Below, piece by piece: positions 2,474-35,584 of a DNA stretch of 44,226 nucleotides. How positions within the stretch are numbered: the stretch's first letter is position 1; each line of letters starts with the position of its first letter. A program made the translations under genes and the position numbers. Below the pieces are notes generated by a model. That model saw nothing but the letters and a program-made list of their open reading frames with translations. It ran no database searches and had not been told where the DNA came from. Origin of the DNA: a virus; the UHGV virus genome UHGV-0346409; one strand, 5' to 3'.

Positions 2474-4692
2474 GCTGTTTGCTCCTGTGCGGCGGCGAGA
2501 GCGGCGAGGCGTTCGGTTTTGATTTCATTCAAACGGCGCAGGCGCGAACCAAGATAAGTTGAATACTCCTTATCACCTTTGGATTCTGCGGCTTTGCGGT
2601 GAACTTCTACTTCCCGCGCAATAAGGCCATAGACTTTATTAACTTCATTGGGGGTTACGGCTGCAGCCAGTGTTTTGGCAACACCTGAGAGTCGTTCATC
2701 CAGTTCTTCACGCAGTCGGGTAGCATCCTCTGCTTTCTCGCTTGCCTTCTTAATACCGTATTCTGTATTCAGCTCGGCGGTGTAGGCACTATCGTTATGC
2801 ATATCCATATAAACATCTGCCGCAAATCCCAGATGAGATAGTGCTTTGACGGTGGCATCAGTAAGAGACTTTTTGGAGGCCTCTTTTTCCATTACCAGTG
2901 CCCCTTTGTTATTTTTTGATATGTAATCCGTGTGGCCATATGACGGAATAAATCCTTTCACTCCGTTCCAGACGTACCAGAGATCTATCCGGATGGTGTG
3001 TACTGACAGGCAGAACAGGGAGCCGTCAGCATCCCTGACAGGTTTTTGTCCAATAATTTTCCCTGTCTGATCCTGTATAGGTTCAAGTAATGGCACACCG
3101 CGATCCACTCGCTCCTCCTTGATTTCAACTCCCCAACCAATGCCTTCCATTCCCAGCACTTCAGTCGCACGCATCAAAATATATTGTGCGCGTATGGAGT
3201 GCAGTCCTGCACCGTAATCATTATGTGTGACATACGCAGGATCGGTCCGCTGAACGCGATTCCAGATAGCCAAATTTGCTTTGCTCTGGTCATCATTCAT
3301 TGCTGACAGATAATGCTCCATGCGAATTGATGCAGTTTTTTCCTCGGTATGGATCCGCTCAACCAGAGCGTCAACGTTCTGCACCAGGTCTTTTACCTGC
3401 TCGCTAAGTTTTTCTTGTGGAGGAGTCTCTTCTTCCAGGATAACAGTTACAGATTCCCGCTGTGATACGGCGTTATTTTCTGGTACGCCATACACATGGC
3501 GGGGCGTGACAAACTGCTCACGCAACTGCTGCAAACTACGCTCTCCAGCATTTGCTGCTTCGCTTTTTTCGCCCTGATTTGAGGGGGGTTCTGACATCAT
3601 CCCATCGATTGAGAATCGCCCGCCGCCGTGGTTGGTGACTTTTACATCACCCTTTGGTGCTGCGTCCTTTGGCTTCTCTTCAACAGCATTTGCATCACGC
3701 TGCCCGTTAGCTTGCAGCCAGTTGTCGATGTGACTGCGCAGGGATTGCGGGAAATGGTACGTGTCTTTTGCGGGGGCACTCTGAACGACACCGAATACGG
3801 ATGCCCGGTCATAGGAAAGGATCTGATCCGTTGTGCGCAAGGCCATTGACCAGCGTTTAAAATCCTCCCGATCCTGGCTGATTATTTCGTCTGCCGCTTT
3901 CAGGACGCTGGGGGTGATTTTTTCCGGGCCAACGGGTAACAGAGCGCAGGCAATTTCACGATCCAGTGTAGCGTGAGTCTGTTTGTAAGGACGTGCGGAT
4001 GCTGTTTCTGGTTTTACCTCCGGCAGCATTTCATCGCGTTTACCGGGATTCTCTACCCATTTTTTTATAAATTTGGAGATAGTCCAACTGGTCGGGTTTT
4101 GTTCCTGGGTATCGCAACTTGCCAAAATTGCATGTACCAGATTATTCAATCCAGCAATATGCATGTACTCGATGGGCTTACACGCCACCATGGCATCAAG
4201 AACGATGCGGTTAAACGCGTCAACCTCATCCTCACTGTCAGTATCACTGTTGTCGAGCATCTCCAGGTATTCACGCGTCTGCGCAAGCAATTCACTGTTG
4301 ACTTCGTTGGCGTCGTGGCTGAACAGCAGAACGGCGGCGAATCGTTCACGAGCCGGCAGTTTCATCAGGTCGTTAACCTGTGCGATATCTGCTGAACCGC
4401 TATCTACAACGGGGGTGTTAACTACCCATTTTTCGCCATCAAAACTGTGTTCTGTGGCGAACGTCTCATCAAACTCACCAACGCCTGGGCGCGGTTGGCC
4501 CGGGGCATCTTCCCAGATTTTAGGTTTGAAATAGTTGTCGCCGTGGTCAGGGTAGGCTTCCCACAATTTGCCGATGATGATGTTCTCGGCAACTTTTTTG
4601 TTAGGGGCGTCGATGGCGATGGCCAGCGCCGGGATCGCGCCGTTTTTGAGCGCGCCTTTTTTCGCTTCTAACAAGCCGTTAAAAATGGTCAT
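2470..4692 (-). CDS. Large recombination protein with ERF-like single-strand-annealing domain in its C-terminal half and an N-terminal ~430 aa of unknown function
   Basis: 740-aa ORF; region around aa 450-640 (NDYGAG..IRAQYIL.., ..KKSLTDATVKALSHLGFAADVYMD) resembles the ERF family by recall; preceded by ATGAGGAAAGACCA motif. Confidence 0.5.
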   Translation of the reverse strand: MTIFNGLLEAKKGALKNGAIPALAIAIDAPNKKVAENIIIGKLWEAYPDHGDNYFKPKIWEDAPGQPRPGVGEFDETFATEHSFDGEKWVVNTPVVDSGSADIAQVNDLMKLPARERFAAVLLFSHDANEVNSELLAQTREYLEMLDNSDTDSEDEVDAFNRIVLDAMVACKPIEYMHIAGLNNLVHAILASCDTQEQNPTSWTISKFIKKWVENPGKRDEMLPEVKPETASARPYKQTHATLDREIACALLPVGPEKITPSVLKAADEIISQDREDFKRWSMALRTTDQILSYDRASVFGVVQSAPAKDTYHFPQSLRSHIDNWLQANGQRDANAVEEKPKDAAPKGDVKVTNHGGGRFSIDGMMSEPPSNQGEKSEAANAGERSLQQLREQFVTPRHVYGVPENNAVSQRESVTVILEEETPPQEKLSEQVKDLVQNVDALVERIHTEEKTASIRMEHYLSAMNDDQSKANLAIWNRVQRTDPAYVTHNDYGAGLHSIRAQYILMRATEVLGMEGIGWGVEIKEERVDRGVPLLEPIQDQTGKIIGQKPVRDADGSLFCLSVHTIRIDLWYVWNGVKGFIPSYGHTDYISKNNKGALVMEKEASKKSLTDATVKALSHLGFAADVYMDMHNDSAYTAELNTEYGIKKASEKAEDATRLREELDERLSGVAKTLAAAVTPNEVNKVYGLIAREVEVHRKAAESKGDKEYSTYLGSRLRRLNEIKTERLAALAAAQEQTA

Positions 4693-11611: not shown

Positions 11612-12406
11612 ATGACAACTCAAGTATCCGCAGCAGCCATCTCCCCGATTATCCACAACCAACTTCCCGTCCTCACCACCGAATTACTCGCGAATCTCTA
11701 TGGCACAGAGCCGGATTACATTCGTAAAAACCATAACCGGAACTCAGAGCGATTCGTGGTCGGGAAGCATTACTTTTTGCTCGAAGGTGAGGAGTTGCGC
11801 GAATTTAAGCACAGCATGTCTTTAAGACCTCCTGTGAAAATCGCCAGAAATGTCCGCTCTCTCATCCTCTGGACAGAACGCGGCGCAGCTCGCCATGCCA
11901 AAATGCTGGAAACAGAACAGGCCTGGGAAGTTTTCGAAAAGCTGGAAGATTGTTATTTTAGCCAGCGTCCAGAGAGGCGGAGTACAACCACCGATGACCG
12001 CACTCCCTTACGTGATGCCGTTAATATGCTGGTCGGTAAGAAAGGCATGATGTATCCCGATGCCTACACCATGATTCACCAACGTTTCGCCGTCTCTCAC
12101 ATAGAACAACTGTCACAGACGCAAATGTTAGAGGCGATTGAATACATCCACTGCCTGCTACTCGATGAAAATCAGCCAACCATTCCAGATTTTTCTTTTA
12201 TCACCACTATCAAAAATGGAAAAGTGACCAGGATGCGCCATGTTGCCAAAGGCGAACATCTGATGACGTTTGACGCTTTCAAAGAGATCGCTGAGCGGGC
12301 AGGGTATCTGGTGATCCACAGCGACAACCTGCGAAGTATGACGCTGGATAAATTGATGGTAATGGGGAAAAAGTCGGTTGTATCCGTTGCTGATTCAGCA
12401 TTTTGA
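11612..12406 (+). CDS. Antirepressor-like protein with ORF6N/Bro-N-type N-terminal domain
   Basis: N-terminal segment (LPVLTTELLANLYGTEPDYIRKNHNRNSERFVVGKHYFLLEGEELREFK) matches the ORF6N-type antirepressor N-domain by recall; own transcription unit after a terminator. Confidence 0.5.
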   Translation: MTTQVSAAAISPIIHNQLPVLTTELLANLYGTEPDYIRKNHNRNSERFVVGKHYFLLEGEELREFKHSMSLRPPVKIARNVRSLILWTERGAARHAKMLETEQAWEVFEKLEDCYFSQRPERRSTTTDDRTPLRDAVNMLVGKKGMMYPDAYTMIHQRFAVSHIEQLSQTQMLEAIEYIHCLLLDENQPTIPDFSFITTIKNGKVTRMRHVAKGEHLMTFDAFKEIAERAGYLVIHSDNLRSMTLDKLMVMGKKSVVSVADSAF

Positions 12407-12440
12407 CAGGTTGAATGTTTGGCGCGGTTATACTCTATTT

Positions 12441-12515
12441 GCGCTTAAAAAGGTATTTAGTCACAACCAGCACGAGGCCGAATACTCTGTCAAAGTACCG
12501 CCCATGTAAAACTGT
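12441..12515. repeat. Left copy of ~75-bp imperfect direct repeat; decayed remnant of the 3' end of a membrane-protein gene
   Basis: Aligns with 16042-16117 with 4 substitutions and 1 single-base indel; would encode ..FGLVLVVTKYLFKRK-stop on the minus strand but the frame is broken upstream. Confidence 0.7.
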
Positions 12516-12583
12516 TACGTATGTACTTGATGACTAAGCTGGCACCAGGTTAACACCAGGCGCCAGCTTGAAGGAAACTTCAG

Positions 12584-13507
12584 TTATTGGTTTCTGAGGA
12601 AAGCGATTCTTGAAAGGGTCATTTGCGTCTGGCAGTCGACCATTTTCTTGACTTCAGCATCTGTTCCCTGCATTGAAACTTTACCGCACATAGCATCCTT
12701 AGTTTTGATCCACTGACGCTGAGAAGGCAGCAACTCTTTTTTCTTCGCCGGCGTTAACCTGCCCCAGACTGTATTCAAATCAGAGTCAGCATTCGCAAAT
12801 GCCATTCGGGACTGATCAAGGCTTTCAGCTTTTTGCGGCTGAAGTTGTGCCTGCCTCTCTATTTGCTTCTCCGCCTCATACCTGGCCTGTTCCTGTGCCC
12901 TGAGTTGCACCTGTTGTTCCGCTTCAATTTGACTCTGTTGGGCATCCTTAGCCTGCTGGATTTTCTGCTGCTCAACGATCGGGTTGATAATGGAAAGCGA
13001 TGTCAGTAAAGCGGCGCCCACTGATATCGGATTATCAGAAGAGGTTTTTACAAAAACGTTTTTCTGATCGTCGGTCGCCTGCACGGTGTAGGTGATACGT
13101 TTTGAAAAGGCGTTTGCGTTGTTCTCCAAAAACAGATTTTCCATTTGCTTATCGAGATTACGATTAAAATTCTTTCGGTAAGCATCAGAAAGCTGGATGT
13201 ACTCGTTCGCAGGTAGAGTCATCGTCACGGTCCCTTCACAAGTTTTCATTGTGCTGCCCGTGTCACTTGATGTTGTGGAGATTTCAGAGACGGCTAGTTT
13301 GATCTTGTCCAGTGTGCTTCGTTTGGTCTGATTAGTGACATCAGGGTATTTATCGACCTGTTCAGAGAGTCCTTCATAAGCAGATTTTTTTAATAAATCC
13401 ATGAGAGCTGATTGGGTCATTTCCGAAGAACAACCGATCTCATCTTTTTTGTTATCACAGCCTGTAAGGGCAATGGCGAGTAAGAGTACTGAGTATTTTA
13501 ATCTCAT
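12584..13507 (-). CDS. Lipoprotein with coiled-coil Q/E-rich middle region and DUF1311 (LprI-like) C-terminal domain
   Basis: Signal peptide with lipobox LTGC; C-terminus LNTVWGRL..QRQWIKTKDAMC..DCQTQMTLSRIAFL fits the DUF1311 pattern (recall). Confidence 0.6.
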   Translation of the reverse strand: MRLKYSVLLLAIALTGCDNKKDEIGCSSEMTQSALMDLLKKSAYEGLSEQVDKYPDVTNQTKRSTLDKIKLAVSEISTTSSDTGSTMKTCEGTVTMTLPANEYIQLSDAYRKNFNRNLDKQMENLFLENNANAFSKRITYTVQATDDQKNVFVKTSSDNPISVGAALLTSLSIINPIVEQQKIQQAKDAQQSQIEAEQQVQLRAQEQARYEAEKQIERQAQLQPQKAESLDQSRMAFANADSDLNTVWGRLTPAKKKELLPSQRQWIKTKDAMCGKVSMQGTDAEVKKMVDCQTQMTLSRIAFLRNQ

Positions 13508-14133
13508 GAATTCCCTTTAGAGTAAGGATTGGTTTTTAAGACGCGGTCTGTAATCAGTTCCGAGAGCTACAGTAAACAACGCTGAGCACTGAACGCATCA
13601 CAGGCAAGGTAAAAGGTGATATCGGCAAAGGCTGTGAAACCTTTAATTCAACAGATGGGAACGGTATGCACAGGATCCTGTAACGACGCTCCCAAAACCG
13701 GAAACCTGTAAGGCATGTTTTCGCTGCTGAACTTAATATACGAACCTGCACTATCATGAACATATTTTATATCGTTATACCCCGAGTGATTGTGCCCGGC
13801 AATGGATAGTGTCCTGGAGGAACTATTTCTACTGTAAAAGGTAGACATTTAATTTCAGTGTGGAATTATTCCCTGCTGTTAATAACCATGGCTCTATATG
13901 GCACCGAGCGGACTAGTTAACTTGCCTGAAAGCCGCTATGAGTGAGGAGCGAATATTGGCACGATAGGATACCTGAACCATTTTTTGGACATGCGCTAAA
14001 AGCGAATGATTAGTTTTATCGGAATATTTACAGTATACTTACAAGGCAAGCTTGGCGTACCGTCTTGGGCGAGATTGCTTAAATTATTTTGTGGATATAT
14101 CATTCAAACAAAAGATAATAAAATGAGGTTGTT

Positions 14134-14331
14134 ATGTCATATATTCGCGTAGAGAAAGATGGCCTTCAGTATGAAGCAGAATACTTCCGTGAAGAGGATA
14201 TGGTCACAGTCTTTGGGGTTAGAGGAGGGCATTCCAGCGTGGTTCTAAATGGAATGACAGAAGTCGCGGCTGCTCGTACTGCGTTACGAAATCTTATTAG
14301 AGAAAATCAGGTTGATCCTCTAACTGATTAA
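14134..14331 (+). CDS. Hypothetical protein (65 aa), AT-rich cargo gene
   Basis: GAGG RBS; possible promoter-like elements upstream. Confidence 0.45.
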   Translation: MSYIRVEKDGLQYEAEYFREEDMVTVFGVRGGHSSVVLNGMTEVAAARTALRNLIRENQVDPLTD

Positions 14332-14535
14332 AAATAAGCCATCTTAACTGAGAGCATATTTTGATATAATTTAGATTAAATCTATTTTGAAGGTTAGTTT
14401 GGGATGAGAAGATTACATCAAAACCGTTATTACTAGCAATAAGTTGTGTAAATCAAATAATACATAATCAGGTGGTAATATATACTAAGCGTAGTAAAGT
14501 TTTTATATATTCCTGTAACTTTGTGAGAAACTTCC

Positions 14536-15201
14536 ATGAAAGCCGACAACTTAAGAATTATAGAGAATGGCAAATATGTTTTCGATATGTTCTTGGATAC
14601 TGGTGAATTTTACTATACAAGTCATGCCTTTGACACGAGAGAAGATGCAAAAAGCTGGATGGAAGAATGGCAGATTTGGGCAAATAATGTATCGAGTGGG
14701 AAAGTAAGTAGTATTTATTATATTTTACAAGTGCCTGATACTTGGGCCGGTTCTTCAGATAAAAATAACCCTTACTCGGGACTTTATGTGAAAATAGGGC
14801 GTTCCAATAATGTGCTAAAAAGGTTGTCTAACCTGCAGACAGGTGCATTTGGTCAATTAATATTACACGCTTTGGAACCAGGTGGTTCAGAAAAAGAAAA
14901 CTATCTTCATGAAAAATTTAGCAACGAAAGACGTCAAGGTGAATGGTTTGTTTGTACTAAGGAACTTACCAAGCATATATTTACAACATGGTTTAAAAAC
15001 AAAATGCTCCCACCAGAACATCAAATAAAAATAATGCAGCTCGCAGAAAGAATAGGTATTTATTCGCATGTTCATACACTAATGGGGGGGAAGCCAGACT
15101 TAGTAAACCCATCTATTAGTGAACCTTGGGAATGCGAAAAATATGTTTTGGTTGATATGATTTATAGCTCTTTAGCAAAGCAAGTTAATCATAAAAAATA
15201 A
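14536..15201 (+). CDS. T5orf172-domain (GIY-YIG-like) protein with unknown N- and C-terminal extensions
   Basis: Central region IYYILQ..GLYVKIGRSNNVLKRLSNLQTG..LHEKFSNERRQGEWF matches the T5orf172/MUG113 signature (recall); AT-rich coding sequence. Confidence 0.6.
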   Translation: MKADNLRIIENGKYVFDMFLDTGEFYYTSHAFDTREDAKSWMEEWQIWANNVSSGKVSSIYYILQVPDTWAGSSDKNNPYSGLYVKIGRSNNVLKRLSNLQTGAFGQLILHALEPGGSEKENYLHEKFSNERRQGEWFVCTKELTKHIFTTWFKNKMLPPEHQIKIMQLAERIGIYSHVHTLMGGKPDLVNPSISEPWECEKYVLVDMIYSSLAKQVNHKK

Positions 15202-15521
15202 AGTGTTACATTTTAACTATACAATTATTGATTCACTAATGAAGAGGTGATTTAGACGTATGAAGTTTTAATAAGCTCCAAGAATATTTTGTCATACATG
15301 GGTTAAAGAGTTATATAATAATATCTGCTTCTGGAACACAGCAGACAAGCACCTGCAGATAAAGGTCTGCTGAGAGCGAGAAGCGGATCATACGTTGGAA
15401 GTTGTTTAGGCAAATACGTTATAAACGTATTTGATTAAATTTACTTGGATCATAGTCTTCAATAACGCTTTATTATATTGTTTTTCATGCAGCAAACAGG
15501 TTCACAGGTAGGTAATAAGCT

Positions 15522-15926
15522 ATGAGTGGATGGAAAGAGCCTTTTACATTAGCAGAACAGATACAATTAGCATTAAATTTAGGTTATGAGGCTGTACCAG
15601 ATGAAGAGGCATATACTGGGGCATACTTCATTAAAGGTGGTAAGAAGTGGATCTTTAACATCATCGGTCTCAAAAAGACATTGAATATATCTTCAGATGA
15701 TGAACTAAGAGGGCAGGATTATGATGTTGATATGTATTTCGAAATTCGCCAAAATTGGGCACAATACCAAGATATGATCTTTGGAAGCGAAGATATCACT
15801 CCTTCACCTAAAAATGAACTTACTTCAATTTACCATGACCTGCAGGTAACGGATGAACCCAGGGAAATGGTGTATCTTTCTGATGGGATGTGGCTGGATC
15901 CCAACGGACGAATTGTACAACGATAG
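15522..15926 (+). CDS. Hypothetical protein (134 aa), acidic, AT-rich cargo gene
   Basis: ORF with AGGTAGG upstream; no recognisable motif. Confidence 0.45.
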   Translation: MSGWKEPFTLAEQIQLALNLGYEAVPDEEAYTGAYFIKGGKKWIFNIIGLKKTLNISSDDELRGQDYDVDMYFEIRQNWAQYQDMIFGSEDITPSPKNELTSIYHDLQVTDEPREMVYLSDGMWLDPNGRIVQR

Positions 15927-16035
15927 CACTCGAACACACTCAGTAATCGTCTATAAGGCCAGCACTTGTTACTTGGTCATTTGGGGTTGCTGGTCTTCTC
16001 CATTAAATCGACTAAAGTCTGTTCCATAGAGAGAG

Positions 16036-16641
16036 TTACTTGCGTTTAAAAAGGTATTTTGTCACGACCAGCACGAGGCCGAATACCTCTGTCAAAGTAC
16101 CGCCCATGTACAACTGTAGTGTTAAATCCTCAAATTCCAGCTTACCTGCGCCGTCGGCAATAAATACACCATTCATTATCAGAAGTTGGCAAGCAAGGAT
16201 AATCAGGAACCATTTCCCGTATCGTTTTTTTAGAGCGATTTCTGCTTCAAAATCTTTGTTGTTGAGTTGTTTGCGCTCATGCTCGGTATCAAGTGAATTC
16301 ACCTGTTTCACAGATGTGAACTCGGTCAAGATTTTACTCTCAGTACGGGTGACTTGTTGAGAGGGTGTAACAGTTGGAATTCTTTTGCTAGACGCAGCTA
16401 CAGCCATTTTGCGAGCTTCGGCAGCTCTTTTTCTGGCTATTCCGCGAATACGGACAGCCGTTTTTTTGGGGGCGTGCGAAACCTTTGGCTGAGGTGAAGT
16501 TTCGTCAGGAGACTGAACCGGGGTTTCATCGTCCCCCGGCTCAACCTCTTCTGCTAACTGACGGTGTAGGTTGAGGGAATCCTTCAGTCGGCGTGCAACT
16601 TCCTGTTTGAAACGGCTGTTAAAATCGTCATCCGATGGCAT
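16036..16641 (-). CDS. Membrane protein: charged, low-complexity N-terminal region and two C-terminal transmembrane helices
   Basis: Hydrophobic segments WFLIILACQLLIMNGVFI and LTEVFGLVLVV near the C-terminus; start 9 nt after the ImmA-like stop (operon). Confidence 0.6.
   Translation of the reverse strand: MPSDDDFNSRFKQEVARRLKDSLNLHRQLAEEVEPGDDETPVQSPDETSPQPKVSHAPKKTAVRIRGIARKRAAEARKMAVAASSKRIPTVTPSQQVTRTESKILTEFTSVKQVNSLDTEHERKQLNNKDFEAEIALKKRYGKWFLIILACQLLIMNGVFIADGAGKLEFEDLTLQLYMGGTLTEVFGLVLVVTKYLFKRK
16042..16117. repeat. Right copy of ~75-bp imperfect direct repeat, lying within the 3' end of the membrane-protein gene
   Basis: Aligns with 12441-12515 (about 93% identity). Confidence 0.7.
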
Positions 16642-16650
16642 TCTAAAGCG

Positions 16651-17139
16651 TTACCCCAACCTCAAGTTCTTTAAACGATAAGTCATCGCATCGTCAGATA
16701 CGCCAAAATAATGCGCCATTATATAACTTGGTTGGCCGTCAGCGTGCAGTTTTCTGACCTCATCAACCGGCATCAGAAGTTCTGCTGCGAACTTGTTCGC
16801 AAAAATTTCATCAGGATGCGTTCCGGCGCTTGCGGTTTCGCCACGTAAATCAACGTACTCATATTCATCACTATGCGATGCTTGCCGGGCGATGTAATGC
16901 CCCAACTCATGCCCACATGAAAAACGTTGACGAACTTTGTTGTCATCACTGTTTAGAAAGATCGCTGGATCTTGATCTTTTTGTTTAATCAGTGCGCCAG
17001 AAACTTTCCCAGGAAGATCGGTAATAAAAACATCTAATCCCATGTCGTGAGCAATTTTCGCTGGATCAACAGGGAAACCACGCCCGCACCAGAACGTGTC
17101 CAGCACTCGCCGGGCGTGCTCTCTTGGGTTGGTAGCCAT
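16651..17139 (-). CDS. ImmA/IrrE-family zinc metallopeptidase (COG2856/DUF955-like)
   Basis: HExxH motif (CGHELGHY) and downstream E..ANKFAAELLMP segment typical of ImmA/IrrE peptidases (recall); GGAGG RBS. Confidence 0.75.
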   Translation of the reverse strand: MATNPREHARRVLDTFWCGRGFPVDPAKIAHDMGLDVFITDLPGKVSGALIKQKDQDPAIFLNSDDNKVRQRFSCGHELGHYIARQASHSDEYEYVDLRGETASAGTHPDEIFANKFAAELLMPVDEVRKLHADGQPSYIMAHYFGVSDDAMTYRLKNLRLG

Positions 17140-26448: not shown

Positions 26449-28016
26449 CTGCTCAGCAGTTGCTCGGGCCTGACGGTAAAACGCCACTACGCCGTTACGC
26501 GGGGTATAACGGCGGCGGTCCCGGCTTCGGTGGCCAGCTGATTGACTGGAATGCACCACAGCAAAGCGCCGATGCGGCACTGCTGCCTAATTTTTATCGC
26601 GGTAACGCGCGAGCAGACGATCTCGTTCGTAATAACGGCGTCGCGTCGAACGCCGTGCAGCTGCATCAGGATCATATCGTCGGCAATCTGTTTAAGTTGA
26701 GTTATCGCCCTAACTGGCGTTACATCGGGATATCTCGCGAGGACGCCAGGGCGCTGGCGCGTGACGTTGAGGTCGCGTGGACTGAATACGCCGAGGACCC
26801 TCACTGCACGATTGATATCGAGCGGAAACGGACGTTCACAATGATGATTCGCGAAGGCGTGGCCACTCACGCGTTCAACGGTGAAACCTGCGTACAACCG
26901 GTGTGGGAGAGCTGCGCCGGCAGCGTTTTTCGGACGCGATTCAAAATGGTCTCACCGAAACGAATTCGAAATCCTGGCTACGCAGCTGACACTCAATTTC
27001 GCCGCGCCGGTGTTGATATCGATAAAAACGGGGCCGCGGTTGGGTACTGGATAGCCGAGGATACCTATCCCCTCGGCGGAGTTGGTAAATGCCGGCGCAT
27101 ACCAGCAAAACTCAGCAGCGGCAGACACGCATTCATTCACATATTCGAGCCGCTCGAGGACGGACAAACCCGCGGAGATAACATTTTTTACAGCGTAATG
27201 GAGCGGCTGAAAATGCTCGATACGCTGCAGCAAACACAGCTGCAGAGCGCCATCGTGAAGGCGATGTACGCCGCCACAATCGAATCAGAGCTCGACAGCC
27301 AGCAGGCGTTTGAATATATCGCCGGCGCGGGTACTGATATCGACTCGAACCCGCTGAGTTCGTTTATTCAGAGTTACGTGACGTACTACAACGGCGCAAA
27401 TATCAAGCTCGGTGGTGTGAAAGTTCCCCACCTGCATCCCGGCGACAAACTCAGTTTACAGACCGCTCAGAATGCTGATGCTGGTTTCAGTTCGCTGGAA
27501 AAATCACTCCTGCGTTACGTTGCCGCTGGCGTCGGCGCGTCATATGAGGAACTGAGTCGGGACTACAGCCAGGTCAGTTACTCCAGCGCGCGGGCCAGCG
27601 CAAACGTGAGCTGGCGTTTTTTCATGGGCCGTCGACGTTTTATCGCCGCACGACAGGCGTCACTGATGTTCTGCTGCTGGTTTGAGGAAGCTCTGGCGCG
27701 CGGAGTTATCACCCTGCCACGCTCAGCGGTCCGGTCGTTTTATGAAGCGCGGAACTCCTGGACGAACGCGCTCTGGATCGGCGCTGGTCGCATGGCGATT
27801 GATGGGCTGAAAGAGGTTCAGGAGAGCGCCATGCGCATCACGACTGGCCTCAGCACGTATCAGAACGAACTCGCGCTGCAGGGGCAGGACTACGAGGAGG
27901 TCATGGAACAACAGGAATACGAAATTCAGCGCCGGCGCGAAATGGGGCTGAGCGAACCATCCTGGTCAGTATCTCACCCCTCAAATACCAACGATAACGG
28001 CTGGGGAGGTAACTGA
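26445..28016 (+). CDS. B: Portal protein (lambda gpB-like)
   Basis: 523-aa ORF in the canonical position between W and the protease gene. Confidence 0.8.
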   Translation: MTAQQLLGPDGKTPLRRYAGYNGGGPGFGGQLIDWNAPQQSADAALLPNFYRGNARADDLVRNNGVASNAVQLHQDHIVGNLFKLSYRPNWRYIGISREDARALARDVEVAWTEYAEDPHCTIDIERKRTFTMMIREGVATHAFNGETCVQPVWESCAGSVFRTRFKMVSPKRIRNPGYAADTQFRRAGVDIDKNGAAVGYWIAEDTYPLGGVGKCRRIPAKLSSGRHAFIHIFEPLEDGQTRGDNIFYSVMERLKMLDTLQQTQLQSAIVKAMYAATIESELDSQQAFEYIAGAGTDIDSNPLSSFIQSYVTYYNGANIKLGGVKVPHLHPGDKLSLQTAQNADAGFSSLEKSLLRYVAAGVGASYEELSRDYSQVSYSSARASANVSWRFFMGRRRFIAARQASLMFCCWFEEALARGVITLPRSAVRSFYEARNSWTNALWIGAGRMAIDGLKEVQESAMRITTGLSTYQNELALQGQDYEEVMEQQEYEIQRRREMGLSEPSWSVSHPSNTNDNGWGGN

Positions 28017-29326
28017 TGCCGTGGAACAATTTTCCGCACCTCGCCGCTAGGGCGTTCAATCAACCGCTTTTGCTGGAGCCCGCCTACGCGCGGGTATTTT
28101 TTTCTGCGCTGAGCGACCGGTTCGGTACCGGGCGACTGATTGATACAGCGTCAGGAGAGGTAATGAACAGCGACGAAATGAACGCGCTCGCGATGGGGTG
28201 GGACAGCAGCGAGCGAACACGCCAGAAATCGTATCGCGTGGAGCGTGGTATAGCCGTTCTGCCGGTTACCGGGACGCTGGTTCATAAATTGGGTTATATC
28301 AATCCGGTCAGCGGGATGAGTGGTTACGACGGAATCGCAAAACGCCTGCAGCAGGCGATTTCTGATCCCGATGTTAAGGGGATCCTGCTGGATATTGATT
28401 CCCCTGGCGGTGAGGTCGCCGGCGCGTTTGATACCGCTGATTTAATCGCCCGGGCGCGAGAGCAAAAACCGGTGTGGGCGCTGGCCAGCGATACGGCCTG
28501 CAGCGCCGCATATTTGCTGGCGTCAGCGTGTTCGCGCCGGCTGATAACGCAGACCGGCACGGTTGGTTCAATCGGTGTCCTGATGGCTCACCGCTGCGTC
28601 GAAAAGGCGCTGGAGATTGCCGGCGTTGACGTGACGCTGATTTACGCCGGCGCGCACAAAGTCGACGGGAACCCGTATTCCCAGCTGCCCGACGACGTTC
28701 GCGACGAATTCCAGCTGAGTATTAACAGCACACGCGAGCAGTTCGCGCAAAAAGTCTCGGATTATACCGGGCTGAAAAAATCCAGGGTGCTGGCCACAGA
28801 GGCCGCAGTATTTATCGGCGCGGACGCGATTAAATCTGGTCTCGCTGATCAACTCGTTAATTACGCGGACGCTATCGCAGTGATGGCCGACGCACTGAAA
28901 CCAAAAACGGAGCGATTTATGCCAGGTACAACAGAAACCACGGCGGAGACCACGACCACAGAACAAACCGCGGCTACGACTACGGTCGCGCCGGTTGAGT
29001 CCAACGCGGAGCAGATTCGCGCGGACGCCGCATCGAGCGAACTGGCACGCGTGATGGCCATCATCAACTGTCCCGAAGCTGTTGGGCGCGAGGCGCAGGC
29101 AAAAGCGCTCGCTGCCGTCCCCGGGATGACGGTCGGGCAGGCGCAGGCTGTCCTCGCGGCAGCACCGCAAACAGCGCAGGCGCGGACAGAAACGGCGCTC
29201 GATACACTCATGAGCACTGAATCACCGGAAACTATTCAGGATGCCGGCAGCACCACGGCAACAGGAACAACCGCAAACGTCTCGATGCTGGTCGCGGCAG
29301 GGCGTTCAATTTTAGGGGATGAATAA
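28016..29326 (+). CDS. C: Prohead protease / scaffold (lambda gpC-like, S49 peptidase family)
   Basis: S49/ClpP-like segment (GILLDIDSPGGEVAG..AYLLASAC..GSIGV) and Ala/Thr-rich C-terminus. Confidence 0.8.
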   Translation: MPWNNFPHLAARAFNQPLLLEPAYARVFFSALSDRFGTGRLIDTASGEVMNSDEMNALAMGWDSSERTRQKSYRVERGIAVLPVTGTLVHKLGYINPVSGMSGYDGIAKRLQQAISDPDVKGILLDIDSPGGEVAGAFDTADLIARAREQKPVWALASDTACSAAYLLASACSRRLITQTGTVGSIGVLMAHRCVEKALEIAGVDVTLIYAGAHKVDGNPYSQLPDDVRDEFQLSINSTREQFAQKVSDYTGLKKSRVLATEAAVFIGADAIKSGLADQLVNYADAIAVMADALKPKTERFMPGTTETTAETTTTEQTAATTTVAPVESNAEQIRADAASSELARVMAIINCPEAVGREAQAKALAAVPGMTVGQAQAVLAAAPQTAQARTETALDTLMSTESPETIQDAGSTTATGTTANVSMLVAAGRSILGDE

Positions 29327-34079: not shown

Positions 34080-34955
34080 ATGAGTCTGCTGCCGCCGCCA
34101 GCATTCGTTAAAACCCCGTTATTTTCAGATGTTAAATCTAATCTACTGTCAGAGCTGCAGATATTATATCCACAATTTAACGCACTCCTGGAGTCAGACC
34201 CGGCAGTTAAACTGCTGGAAATAGTTGCATACAGAGAAATCATTATTACAGCTCGGGTAAATCAGGGGATGCTCGCTGTATTGCTCGCGTTTGCAAAAGG
34301 GACTGACCTCGACCAGATTGGCGCTAATTTTGACTGCCTGCGGCTGTTGATAACGCCAGCTAATCCCGACTCAGTCCCCCCGACTGAAGCGGTTTACGAG
34401 AGTGACGACGAGTATCGTCATCGCATACAACTATCATGGTACGCGCGTAATACTGCCGGCAGTACAAACGCGTATAACTATTTCGCGCTATCGAGTGATC
34501 CCGATGTTCTGTCAGCGCAGGCATACGGCCCGCCTGTGACTCAGCCAGGGTACGTCGATATGTACGTTTTGTCCCGGACAGGCGACGGTGTACCCCCGCA
34601 ATCACTACTGAATACAGTGAATGCGGCCCTGTCTCCTGACGACACTCGGCCACTAACTGATTTCGTGACCGTAAAACCTGCGTCGAACCTGAATTACCGG
34701 GTTGAGGCCGTTATCGTAGCGGGGCTCGGTCCCGACCAGAACGTATTACTCAACGGCGCGCAGAGCGACCTGGCGGTCTACGTGACCACGCAACATAAAA
34801 TCGGGGCAACAGCAGCCCTGTCGGGAATTTACGACGCAATACATCGTGACGGCACCGAACGTGTGATTCTGATATCGCCGACAGAGGACGTCATTGCAGG
34901 TGTCGGACAGGCACCATATTGCACCGAAATTAAACTCAGCGTACAGATGGGGTGA
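34080..34955 (+). CDS. Baseplate protein (P2 gpJ-like)
   Basis: Collinear similarity to P2 J by recall (ESDDEYRHRIQLSW...AYNYFALSSDP, PYCTEIKL); start placed at the internal ATG matching the P2 J N-terminus (track start 34035 is TTG). Confidence 0.75.
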   Translation: MSLLPPPAFVKTPLFSDVKSNLLSELQILYPQFNALLESDPAVKLLEIVAYREIIITARVNQGMLAVLLAFAKGTDLDQIGANFDCLRLLITPANPDSVPPTEAVYESDDEYRHRIQLSWYARNTAGSTNAYNYFALSSDPDVLSAQAYGPPVTQPGYVDMYVLSRTGDGVPPQSLLNTVNAALSPDDTRPLTDFVTVKPASNLNYRVEAVIVAGLGPDQNVLLNGAQSDLAVYVTTQHKIGATAALSGIYDAIHRDGTERVILISPTEDVIAGVGQAPYCTEIKLSVQMG

Positions 34956-34957
34956 CA

Positions 34958-35584
34958 ATGACGAGCCAGAGTGTACTGCCTCCTAACGCAGTAACACCAG
35001 AAAGAGCGCTGGAAGCCGTTTTATCTCACGTCGGCGATCTGCCTGGCGATATTCGAATTATTAAGAATCCCGATTTGTGTCCTGCAAATCTGTTGCCGTG
35101 GCTTGCGTGGGAATACGCCGTCACCTACTGGAACCCCGACTGGAGCGAGCAGCAAAAACGCGAAATTATTAAAGCAGCTGCGTGGCAGAACAAGCACCGC
35201 GGAACGCGTGGAGCTGTTGAACGAGCGTTATTAACAGTTGGATTTGAGAGCAAAATGAGAGAGTGGTTCGAAGCCGCGCCCAGGGACGACCCGTATACAT
35301 TCGCAATTAAAATATATCTGCTAAAAAATATGGGGTTAGATTTAGAGCTATTGAATACATTTATTGCACAAATATTTGATGCAAAAAATTGTCGCTCTTT
35401 ATTAAAAGAAATAAATTTCGAAACAGGTGTGGAAGGGGAATTTTTTATAGCTGGAACTCCTTACACAAAAATAGGCGTAAATATACCGGCAGATGGTGAT
35501 GGTGGCGTGAAATTAAATGGCGGATTATATATATCAGGCTCGCCAATCGTGAGTCTGTTAGTGGAGATTGGACCCAATGGCTAA
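34958..35584 (+). CDS. Baseplate / tail protein (P2 gpI-like)
   Basis: 209-aa ORF after J; GGGG RBS before ATG 34958; positional and general resemblance. Confidence 0.6.
   Translation: MTSQSVLPPNAVTPERALEAVLSHVGDLPGDIRIIKNPDLCPANLLPWLAWEYAVTYWNPDWSEQQKREIIKAAAWQNKHRGTRGAVERALLTVGFESKMREWFEAAPRDDPYTFAIKIYLLKNMGLDLELLNTFIAQIFDAKNCRSLLKEINFETGVEGEFFIAGTPYTKIGVNIPADGDGGVKLNGGLYISGSPIVSLLVEIGPNG

Follow-up and report, generated by a model that had tools for sequence, protein, structure and literature searches.

A phage-borne, predicted lipoprotein of the DUF1311 type as a remote relative of ScwA over its full length

What a gene labelled as a lysozyme inhibitor does in the accessory region of a temperate phage, and whether the label suits it, is the question raised by one locus of the virus genome UHGV-0346409, which was analysed as a single stretch of 44,226 nucleotides (nt) (hereafter, the window). 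The gene is an open reading frame (ORF) at 12584-13507 on the minus strand, initiated by ATG and encoding 307 amino acids (aa), and it was recovered with exactly the coordinates of the initial annotation, which had been made from the letters alone and had proposed a cargo lipoprotein with a C-terminal DUF1311 domain. The product is labelled 'lysozyme inhibitor LprI family protein' by the NCBI Prokaryotic Genome Annotation Pipeline and is matched by PHROG 5094 (unknown function) at 1e-183. PF07007 was its sole significant Pfam match, the NCBIfam scan gave nothing above its cut-off, and the only match in a sequence search of the Protein Data Bank, Spc42, was judged spurious. The profile of PHROG 5094 begins at residue 36, so that many calls in phage databases seem to have been begun at an internal methionine, without the signal peptide and the lipobox. 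The sequence TAAAGGGAA lies 5' of the ATG and is unchanged in six homologous loci, that of Pantoea included; we read it as the ribosome-binding site of the gene.

The closest characterised relative over the full length is ScwA (SL1344_0490), a periplasmic regulator of cell-wall homeostasis in Salmonella Typhimurium, 275 aa long and with a C-terminal LprI domain (PMC7933661). The ScwA sequence was taken from a Salmonella-type contig with the order copA - scwA - ybaP, which was found via a primer sequence in the supplement of PMC7933661. By BLASTP, ScwA was aligned with residues 11-304 of the lipoprotein (E 5e-11, 21% identity), and by hhalign it was aligned with the 60-member family alignment over 253 columns covering both domains (98.7%, E 1.9e-16). 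Four cysteines of the lipoprotein, C26, C90, C274 and C292, are invariant among the homologues and were aligned with C30, C100, C237 and C259 of ScwA, respectively. The homology runs from end to end, and the lipoprotein is therefore a full-length, if distant, member of the ScwA family and not merely a carrier of DUF1311. Both proteins have the same architecture, that is, an N-terminal alpha+beta domain with one cysteine pair and a C-terminal DUF1311 domain with another.

ScwA is a soluble periplasmic protein with two DsbA-dependent disulfides; it raises the level of MltD and alters those of Slt, AmiC, NlpC, PBP4 and AmpH, its overproduction leads to cell lysis, and deletion of scwA leaves the sensitivity to lysozyme unchanged (PMC7933661). 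From the invariance of the cysteines and the experiments on ScwA, we infer that two disulfides, C26-C90 and C274-C292, would be made by DsbA in the lipoprotein as well. The two genes are also alike in being horizontally acquired and monocistronic, with a low GC content (44.9% for the lipoprotein gene and 43.2% for scwA), and in encoding an exported product (predicted for the lipoprotein). They differ in location, scwA being chromosomal, between copA and ybaP, and the lipoprotein gene being carried by a phage.

The full-length AlphaFold2 model of the lipoprotein (mean predicted local distance difference test score, pLDDT, of 83) was composed, in order, of a disordered lipoprotein tether, an alpha+beta domain (approximately residues 28-157, pLDDT 87 for the N-domain), a long helix and a three-helix bundle (residues 230-305). 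No family was found by the Pfam scan for the N-terminal domain, the modelled fold of which is NTF2/cystatin-like. Its relatives, searched for with phmmer among 1.84 billion representative proteins, formed approximately 140 clusters at 50% identity (P0114-P0250), and most of them were about 300 aa in length with the domain at residues 20-190. A C-terminal PF07007 was detected in 36 of the 60 N-domain proteins that were scanned, and a few of the 60 carried TPR, SH3, TonB_C, cytochrome c or T2SS-G in its place. C26, T78, C90 and D146 were invariant across the N-domain set and the Q-P-T-D-D motif was nearly so, giving the family signature C...T..D..S...C plus QPTDD, and a lipobox was present in most members. 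Neither this separate domain nor the kinship with ScwA had been noticed in the initial annotation.

The C-terminal DUF1311 domain, for which a profile search had been proposed as the check, was confirmed by PF07007 with 33.6 bits against a gathering cut-off of 22 (E 5.4e-08, residues 225-304), and this region has both the helical-bundle fold and the conserved cysteine pair of PF07007. As represented by the crystal structure 3GI7 (Pseudomonas putida PP0307), the LprI/DUF1311 family is the helical domain alone, whereas this domain makes up a quarter of the lipoprotein. The middle of the protein had been described as a coiled coil rich in Q and E. The composition held, with 49% of Q plus E in residues 178-228 versus 16% across the lipoprotein, but the coiled coil was not supported, the best heptad register having hydrophobic residues at 3 of 15 a/d positions; the middle is therefore read as a low-complexity spacer formed by one helix, which AlphaFold2 places at residues 160-221. 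The length of the spacer varies widely in the alignment of homologues, and an 8-aa duplication was found within it in the Escherichia coli allele P0002. That a lipid anchor goes together with a long spacer was considered and set aside as weakly supported, short-spacing lipoproteins being common, although the spacing of the soluble ScwA is the shortest.

The N-terminus, MRLKYSVLLLAIALTGC, was examined with the PROSITE-type lipobox rule ([LVI][ASTVI][GAS]C, preceded by a positively charged n-region and a hydrophobic h-region) and passed it, with the lipobox MRLKYSVLLLAIALTG directly before Cys17, a residue conserved in all 20 aligned homologues. The lipobox signal peptide of the initial annotation is thereby upheld, and of the two features on which that proposal turned, the lipobox and the DUF1311 match, both are present, lipid processing itself being predicted from sequence. 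Export by Sec and lipid modification at Cys17 are accordingly the predicted route for the product. Cys17 is directly followed by Asp18-Asn19. According to the '+2 rule' of E. coli, Asp at the +2 position is a signal for retention in the inner membrane, where the lipoprotein is probably kept through this residue.

The gene was found (at 80% or more of its length) in at least 439 of 5,426 complete E. coli genomes (approximately 8% or more), in all cases in the chromosome, and it occupied the same prophage slot in all four E. coli records that were inspected (RM10042, E24377A, uk_P46212 and strain 463), the order of the slot being the ORF6N gene, the lipoprotein gene on the opposite strand, variable cargo, the hypothetical/ImmA pair and Q. 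In 50,697 sequenced phage records searched by megablast and tblastn, no match to the gene was detected; prophages and chromosomes are the only known sources of the family, the match to PHROG 5094 notwithstanding. Homologues with 67-88% identity were present in Citrobacter, Enterobacter, Yersinia rohdei, Pantoea and Erwinia, and those with 45-50% identity in Proteus and Morganella. The locus query with the narrower family alignment gave 14 species genomes, none of them from Salmonella. Copies in the Enterobacter cloacae complex lie in lambdoid prophages at the equivalent slot, and the Yersinia copy belongs to an island with an integrase gene close by. The homologue is a solitary chromosomal gene in Citrobacter, Pantoea, Proteus, Morganella and one further taxon, at a site that differs from genus to genus.

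What is shared between these contexts is a block of 1.2 kb consisting of the gene, approximately 45 nt downstream and approximately 229 nt upstream of it (12538-13736, 87% identical to Citrobacter). The block is 82-90% identical in the loci of Citrobacter, Yersinia, Leclercia and Pseudescherichia and in the Enterobacter prophages, and its end points recur in independent contexts, homology to Citrobacter stopping at 12538. The chromosomal copies of Citrobacter, Yersinia, Pseudescherichia and Leclercia have in common a longer block, of 1.7 kb or more, which reaches past both ends of the phage block, so that the phage copy looks like a captured sub-fragment. In Citrobacter, the GC content of the gene is 45.6% versus 54.1% for the locus. 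At the downstream edge of the block, the 72 nt of 12515-12586 on the minus strand fold with -28.2 kcal/mol (z -5.0), and the hairpin within them is likely a 3' end or a transcript-stabilising stem. In the leader upstream, the blocks GAATTAAAG and TGCCGATAT are unchanged even in Pantoea; no conserved ORF, Rfam match or unusually stable fold was found there, and a sigma-E-like GGAACT...TCTTA motif spotted by eye was dropped on account of its wrong spacing.

Both domains of the protein are under purifying selection. The ratio of non-synonymous to synonymous substitution rates (dN/dS) was 0.1-0.27 for the whole gene against five other copies and 0.09-0.30 within each domain, where computable. Shortened C-terminal or frameshifted alleles were also observed in E. 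coli, Citrobacter and Klebsiella (P0071, P0088 and P0113); P0071, which has 259 aa and is without most of DUF1311, represents a cluster of 166 sequences. These alleles may reflect genuine decay or be artefacts of contig ends.

Prophage morons that encode envelope lipoproteins are well known, Bor and Cor being the classical lambdoid ones. The antisense orientation, the 3' hairpin and the occurrence of the same 1.2-kb block in chromosomes and in other prophages place the present gene among morons, and like Bor and Cor it stands alone between phage modules, antisense and with flanking signals of its own. No Bor/Cor-type sequence or domain likeness was found in any library searched.

The prophage setting was evident from the E. 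coli O43 strain RM10042, to the chromosome of which the region 12000-14400 is 100% identical, in a lambdoid prophage integrated beside tRNA-Ser and mtfA. The prophage runs from integrase through repressor/Cro-type regulators and replication genes, a DnaB-type helicase included, to accessory genes, DUF1367, DUF1364, Q, holins, endolysin and structural genes; the lipoprotein gene is one of the accessory genes that separate replication from Q, and it is antisense to the phage genes. The initial annotation was thus right in assigning the gene to a prophage and to the strand opposite to the early and late phage genes, and right also in describing a cassette bracketed by repeats, since two direct repeats, 92-97% identical and 3.6 kb apart, flank it (Table 1). 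At least the 16 last codons are retained in the left relic, and both repeats finish in VFGLVLVVTKYLFKRK followed by the stop. The bracket is a recombination scar, that is, a duplicated 3' end of a gene, and not the end of a transposon. Between the repeats, the cassette (12516-16036, 3.5 kb) contains the lipoprotein gene plus low-GC cargo; the stretch 13737-16036 has a GC content of 36.8%, and what it holds seems to be AT-rich cargo of recent acquisition. Other E. coli prophages retain the lipoprotein gene and have different cargo to the right of it (HNH nucleases, LEM-3-like GIY-YIG nucleases, or a 699-nt ORF). Cargo being swapped while the lipoprotein gene stays, the gene lies at a fixed edge of a recombination hotspot.

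Table 1. Positions of the lipoprotein gene, its parts and the surrounding features (window coordinates, unless another record is named).
Feature	Position	Strand	Remarks
ScwA-family lipoprotein, coding sequence	12584..13507	(-)	Complete, 307 aa; WP_039264482.1; PHROG 5094; ATG start
Predicted signal peptide with lipobox L-T-G-C17, aa 1-17	13457..13507	(-)	PROSITE-type lipobox rule; C17 invariant (20/20)
N-terminal alpha+beta domain, aa 22-160	13028..13444	(-)	Invariant C26, T78, C90 and D146; Q-[PA]-T-D-D motif; NTF2/cystatin-like (model)
Q/E/A/K-rich helical spacer, aa 161-228	12824..13027	(-)	Predicted helix 160-221; length differs between homologues
DUF1311/LprI three-helix domain, aa 229-307	12587..12823	(-)	Invariant C274 and C292
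GC-rich hairpin, no U-tract, 14 nt after the stop	12537..12569	(-)	Downstream edge of the shared block
Non-coding leader/promoter region, 229 nt	13508..13736	(-)	Travels with the gene across genera
Left direct repeat	12436..12515	(-)	3'-end relic of a 16036-16641(-)-like gene
Right direct repeat	16037..16117	(-)	Intact 3' end of gene 16036-16641(-), adjoining the ImmA/IrrE peptidase gene
Cargo ORF, 65 aa, no known function	14134-14331		
GIY-YIG/T5orf172 (MUG113) protein	14536-15201	(+)	Cargo stretch
Cargo ORF, 134 aa, no known function	15522-15926		
DinI and Ivy genes of the Enterobacter prophage L010	3178-3591 and 5341-5538 (in L010)		

Several further observations were made around the hotspot. 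The gene pair 16036-17139 on the minus strand encodes an ImmA/IrrE metallopeptidase (Pfam Peptidase_M78; CapP-like by PADLOC, 2.4e-25) and a protein of 201 aa that matches no family and has a hydrophobic C-terminus. Of the three other E. coli prophages looked at, two (uk_P46212 and strain 463) likewise have this conserved pair beside the hotspot. The neighbour on the other side, 11612-12406 on the plus strand, encodes an antirepressor-like protein with an ORF6N domain (weak PADLOC match to PDC-S05, E approximately 3e-06) and is found together with the lipoprotein gene in the majority of the E. coli copies. In the type I-E CRISPR arrays of other E. coli strains (L036, L037 and L038), spacers of 32-33 nt were identical to the prophage, within the lipoprotein gene at 12890-12921, 13003-13034 and 13476-13508, and elsewhere at 2626-2657, 4002-4033, 29288-29319 and 34507-34538, with imperfect matches at 27837-27865 and 35258-35289; these arrays had been selected by their match to the lipoprotein gene, so that an enrichment of spacers on the gene cannot be claimed. 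Approximately 148 E. coli genomes gave a partial match only (587 with any match minus the 439 with at least 80% of the gene), and the eight partial-match records listed were all of 33-37 nt and annotated as CRISPR.

Some neighbours of the homologues in other genera were recorded as well. In Morganella morganii (L013-L015, 1-7002), the homologue lies directly downstream of an alpha-2-macroglobulin / PBP1C (pbpC) gene pair, an adjacency that is not kept in Proteus. Such a pair serves in periplasmic defence and cell-wall repair. A DinI gene lies beside the homologue in the Enterobacter prophages L010, L011 and L012, and a gene for the lysozyme inhibitor Ivy lies approximately 2.4 kb from it, past the Q gene, in L010; envelope- or stress-related cargo thus does occur in such phages.

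As regards the label, Mycobacterium tuberculosis LprI (Rv1541c) and the present protein are both lipoproteins with DUF1311. In LprI, however, DUF1311 is N-terminal and is followed by MliC, which suffices for lysozyme resistance (per PMC7933661), whereas in the present protein DUF1311 is C-terminal and no known lysozyme-inhibitor domain (MliC (PF09864), Ivy, PliC or PliG) was found by the Pfam and NCBIfam scans. The activity of LprI being attributed to a domain that is absent here, and deletion of scwA being without a lysozyme effect, the name 'lysozyme inhibitor' is probably misleading for this phage-borne, already annotated ScwA/DUF1311-type protein with a predicted lipid anchor, and action as a classical lysozyme inhibitor is unlikely. 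A wider reading is that of an orphan immunity protein or inhibitor, in which DUF1311 would neutralise incoming peptidoglycan-degrading enzymes (lysozyme-like effectors of competitors' type VI secretion systems (T6SS), phage lysins or host lysozyme) and so protect the wall of the lysogen. Precedents exist in short DUF1311 proteins that have, or are predicted to have, a periplasmic immunity role against T6SS effectors aimed at the cell wall (PMC12981562, PMC9796082, PMC12135965): Etsi4, a DUF1311 protein, rescues Etse4 toxicity in enterohaemorrhagic E. coli (PMC12981562), orphan LprI-domain immunity genes are found in hcp islands of Pantoea (PMC9796082), and DUF1311/LprI genes flank WHIX effectors (PMC12135965). 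These proteins share with the lipoprotein DUF1311, a periplasmic location (predicted here) and a tie to peptidoglycan-targeting enzymes (suggested here by homology), and the Ivy gene of L010 is an example of envelope-protective cargo. They are, however, single-domain proteins of approximately 150 aa encoded beside an effector, whereas the lipoprotein has the additional N-terminal domain and its gene is solitary in all contexts examined, neither a T6SS gene nor an effector being adjacent to it in the window and in the loci of other genera alike. ECs_0213, encoded at the expected Etsi4 position in E. coli O157 Sakai and used for the comparison with Etsi4, reached only 18.7 bits with PF07007 and, in comparison with the lipoprotein, E 0.099, from which the T6SS immunity proteins appear as much remoter relatives than ScwA. 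Neither is the gene paired with one type of lysin, the endolysin being of the CHAP type here and of the GH19 type in an Enterobacter phage that also carries the gene; a pairing of gene and endolysin was accordingly rejected, and a role tied to the phage's own lysis is argued against. With the absence of MliC and the unchanged lysozyme sensitivity of the scwA mutant added, orphan immunity is considered rather unlikely, and the lysozyme-inhibitor-like or immunity-like role first proposed for the gene is no more than a possibility. A bolder form of it, in which the spacer would be a ruler placing DUF1311 at the peptidoglycan, where this domain would neutralise foreign muramidases (T6SS effectors or phage lysins), so that phages would deliver orphan immunity to their lysogens and the QPTDD NTF2-like domain plus DUF1311 would make a new widespread two-domain envelope family, is thought improbable.

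The N-terminal domain could also point away from the cell wall. As it is the defining module of the family and is fused elsewhere to TPR, SH3, TonB_C, cytochrome c or T2SS-G, and as NTF2-like folds, which the fold matches indicate here, often bind small molecules, an unrelated envelope function (ligand or lipid binding of the NTF2-like kind, or a scaffold) may be imagined for a passenger gene without specific benefit to the phage. The solitary chromosomal copies without phage in many genera and the damaged alleles P0071, P0088 and P0113 fit this; the presence of the gene in at least 439 E. coli genomes, in the same slot in the records examined, the purifying selection in both domains and the cell-wall phenotype of the sole characterised homologue (PMC7933661) do not, and we regard it as unlikely. 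Superinfection exclusion by a Cor/Llp/SieA-like lipoprotein that blocks adsorption or DNA entry, which the initial annotation had also put forward, would agree with the classical layout of an antisense prophage lipoprotein gene and with the edge of a cargo hotspot with nuclease-type genes. It found no support in the searches, however, no PADLOC model matching the lipoprotein and the NCBIfam similarity to TrbK and VirB7 being limited to the signal peptide (E approximately 0.08), and the gene is a stable chromosomal one outside phages in several genera, so that such a role is very improbable.

The model favoured is that of a ScwA-type regulator of a lipid-anchored kind which acts on peptidoglycan hydrolases, and it is put forward tentatively, its chance being judged as somewhat short of even. 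Several points weigh against it. ScwA is soluble and its signal peptide is an ordinary one, whereas the lipoprotein has a lipobox with Asp at +2; the residue at +2 is Asp in the ten closest aligned homologues and Asn or Gly in others, so that retention in the inner membrane is not constant in the family. The spacing between the marker motifs is 81 residues in ScwA, the shortest in the family, and 123 in the lipoprotein, which has a long spacer. With an identity to ScwA of 21% only, the target of the lipoprotein may differ. For ScwA itself, what has been reported is a change in MltD level and not direct binding. Across the contexts examined, no conserved neighbour pointed to peptidoglycan enzymes, and no consensus sigma-70 site was found in the leader 13508-13736, expression in the lysogen being thus unproven.

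Under the favoured model of a lipid-anchored ScwA-type regulator, the gene would be a self-contained accessory unit ('moron') with its own leader, coding sequence and 3' hairpin, placed antisense in the region from replication to Q. The product would be exported, lipid-modified at Cys17 and held in the inner membrane via Asp at +2, and the two intradomain disulfides would stabilise it. The NTF2/cystatin-like domain would lie close to the membrane, and the spacer, a single helix of approximately 60 residues, would carry the DUF1311 bundle into the periplasm. By homology to ScwA, the protein may bind or stabilise enzymes that cleave peptidoglycan, above all lytic transglycosylases (MltD, for instance), and shift their level or activity, and carriage of the prophage would then retune the cell-wall turnover of the lysogen.

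For annotation, the consequence is that a name which is likely wrong, 'lysozyme inhibitor', is carried everywhere by the gene and is already repeated in lists of virulence factors, and that the N-terminal domain, as yet without a name, may constitute a new domain family of approximately 140 clusters, mostly lipoproteins, which could be curated. For the biology of the phages and their hosts, the link to ScwA gives the gene a testable function, the tuning of peptidoglycan hydrolases, and suggests that temperate phages can spread modifiers of cell-wall homeostasis between Enterobacterales.

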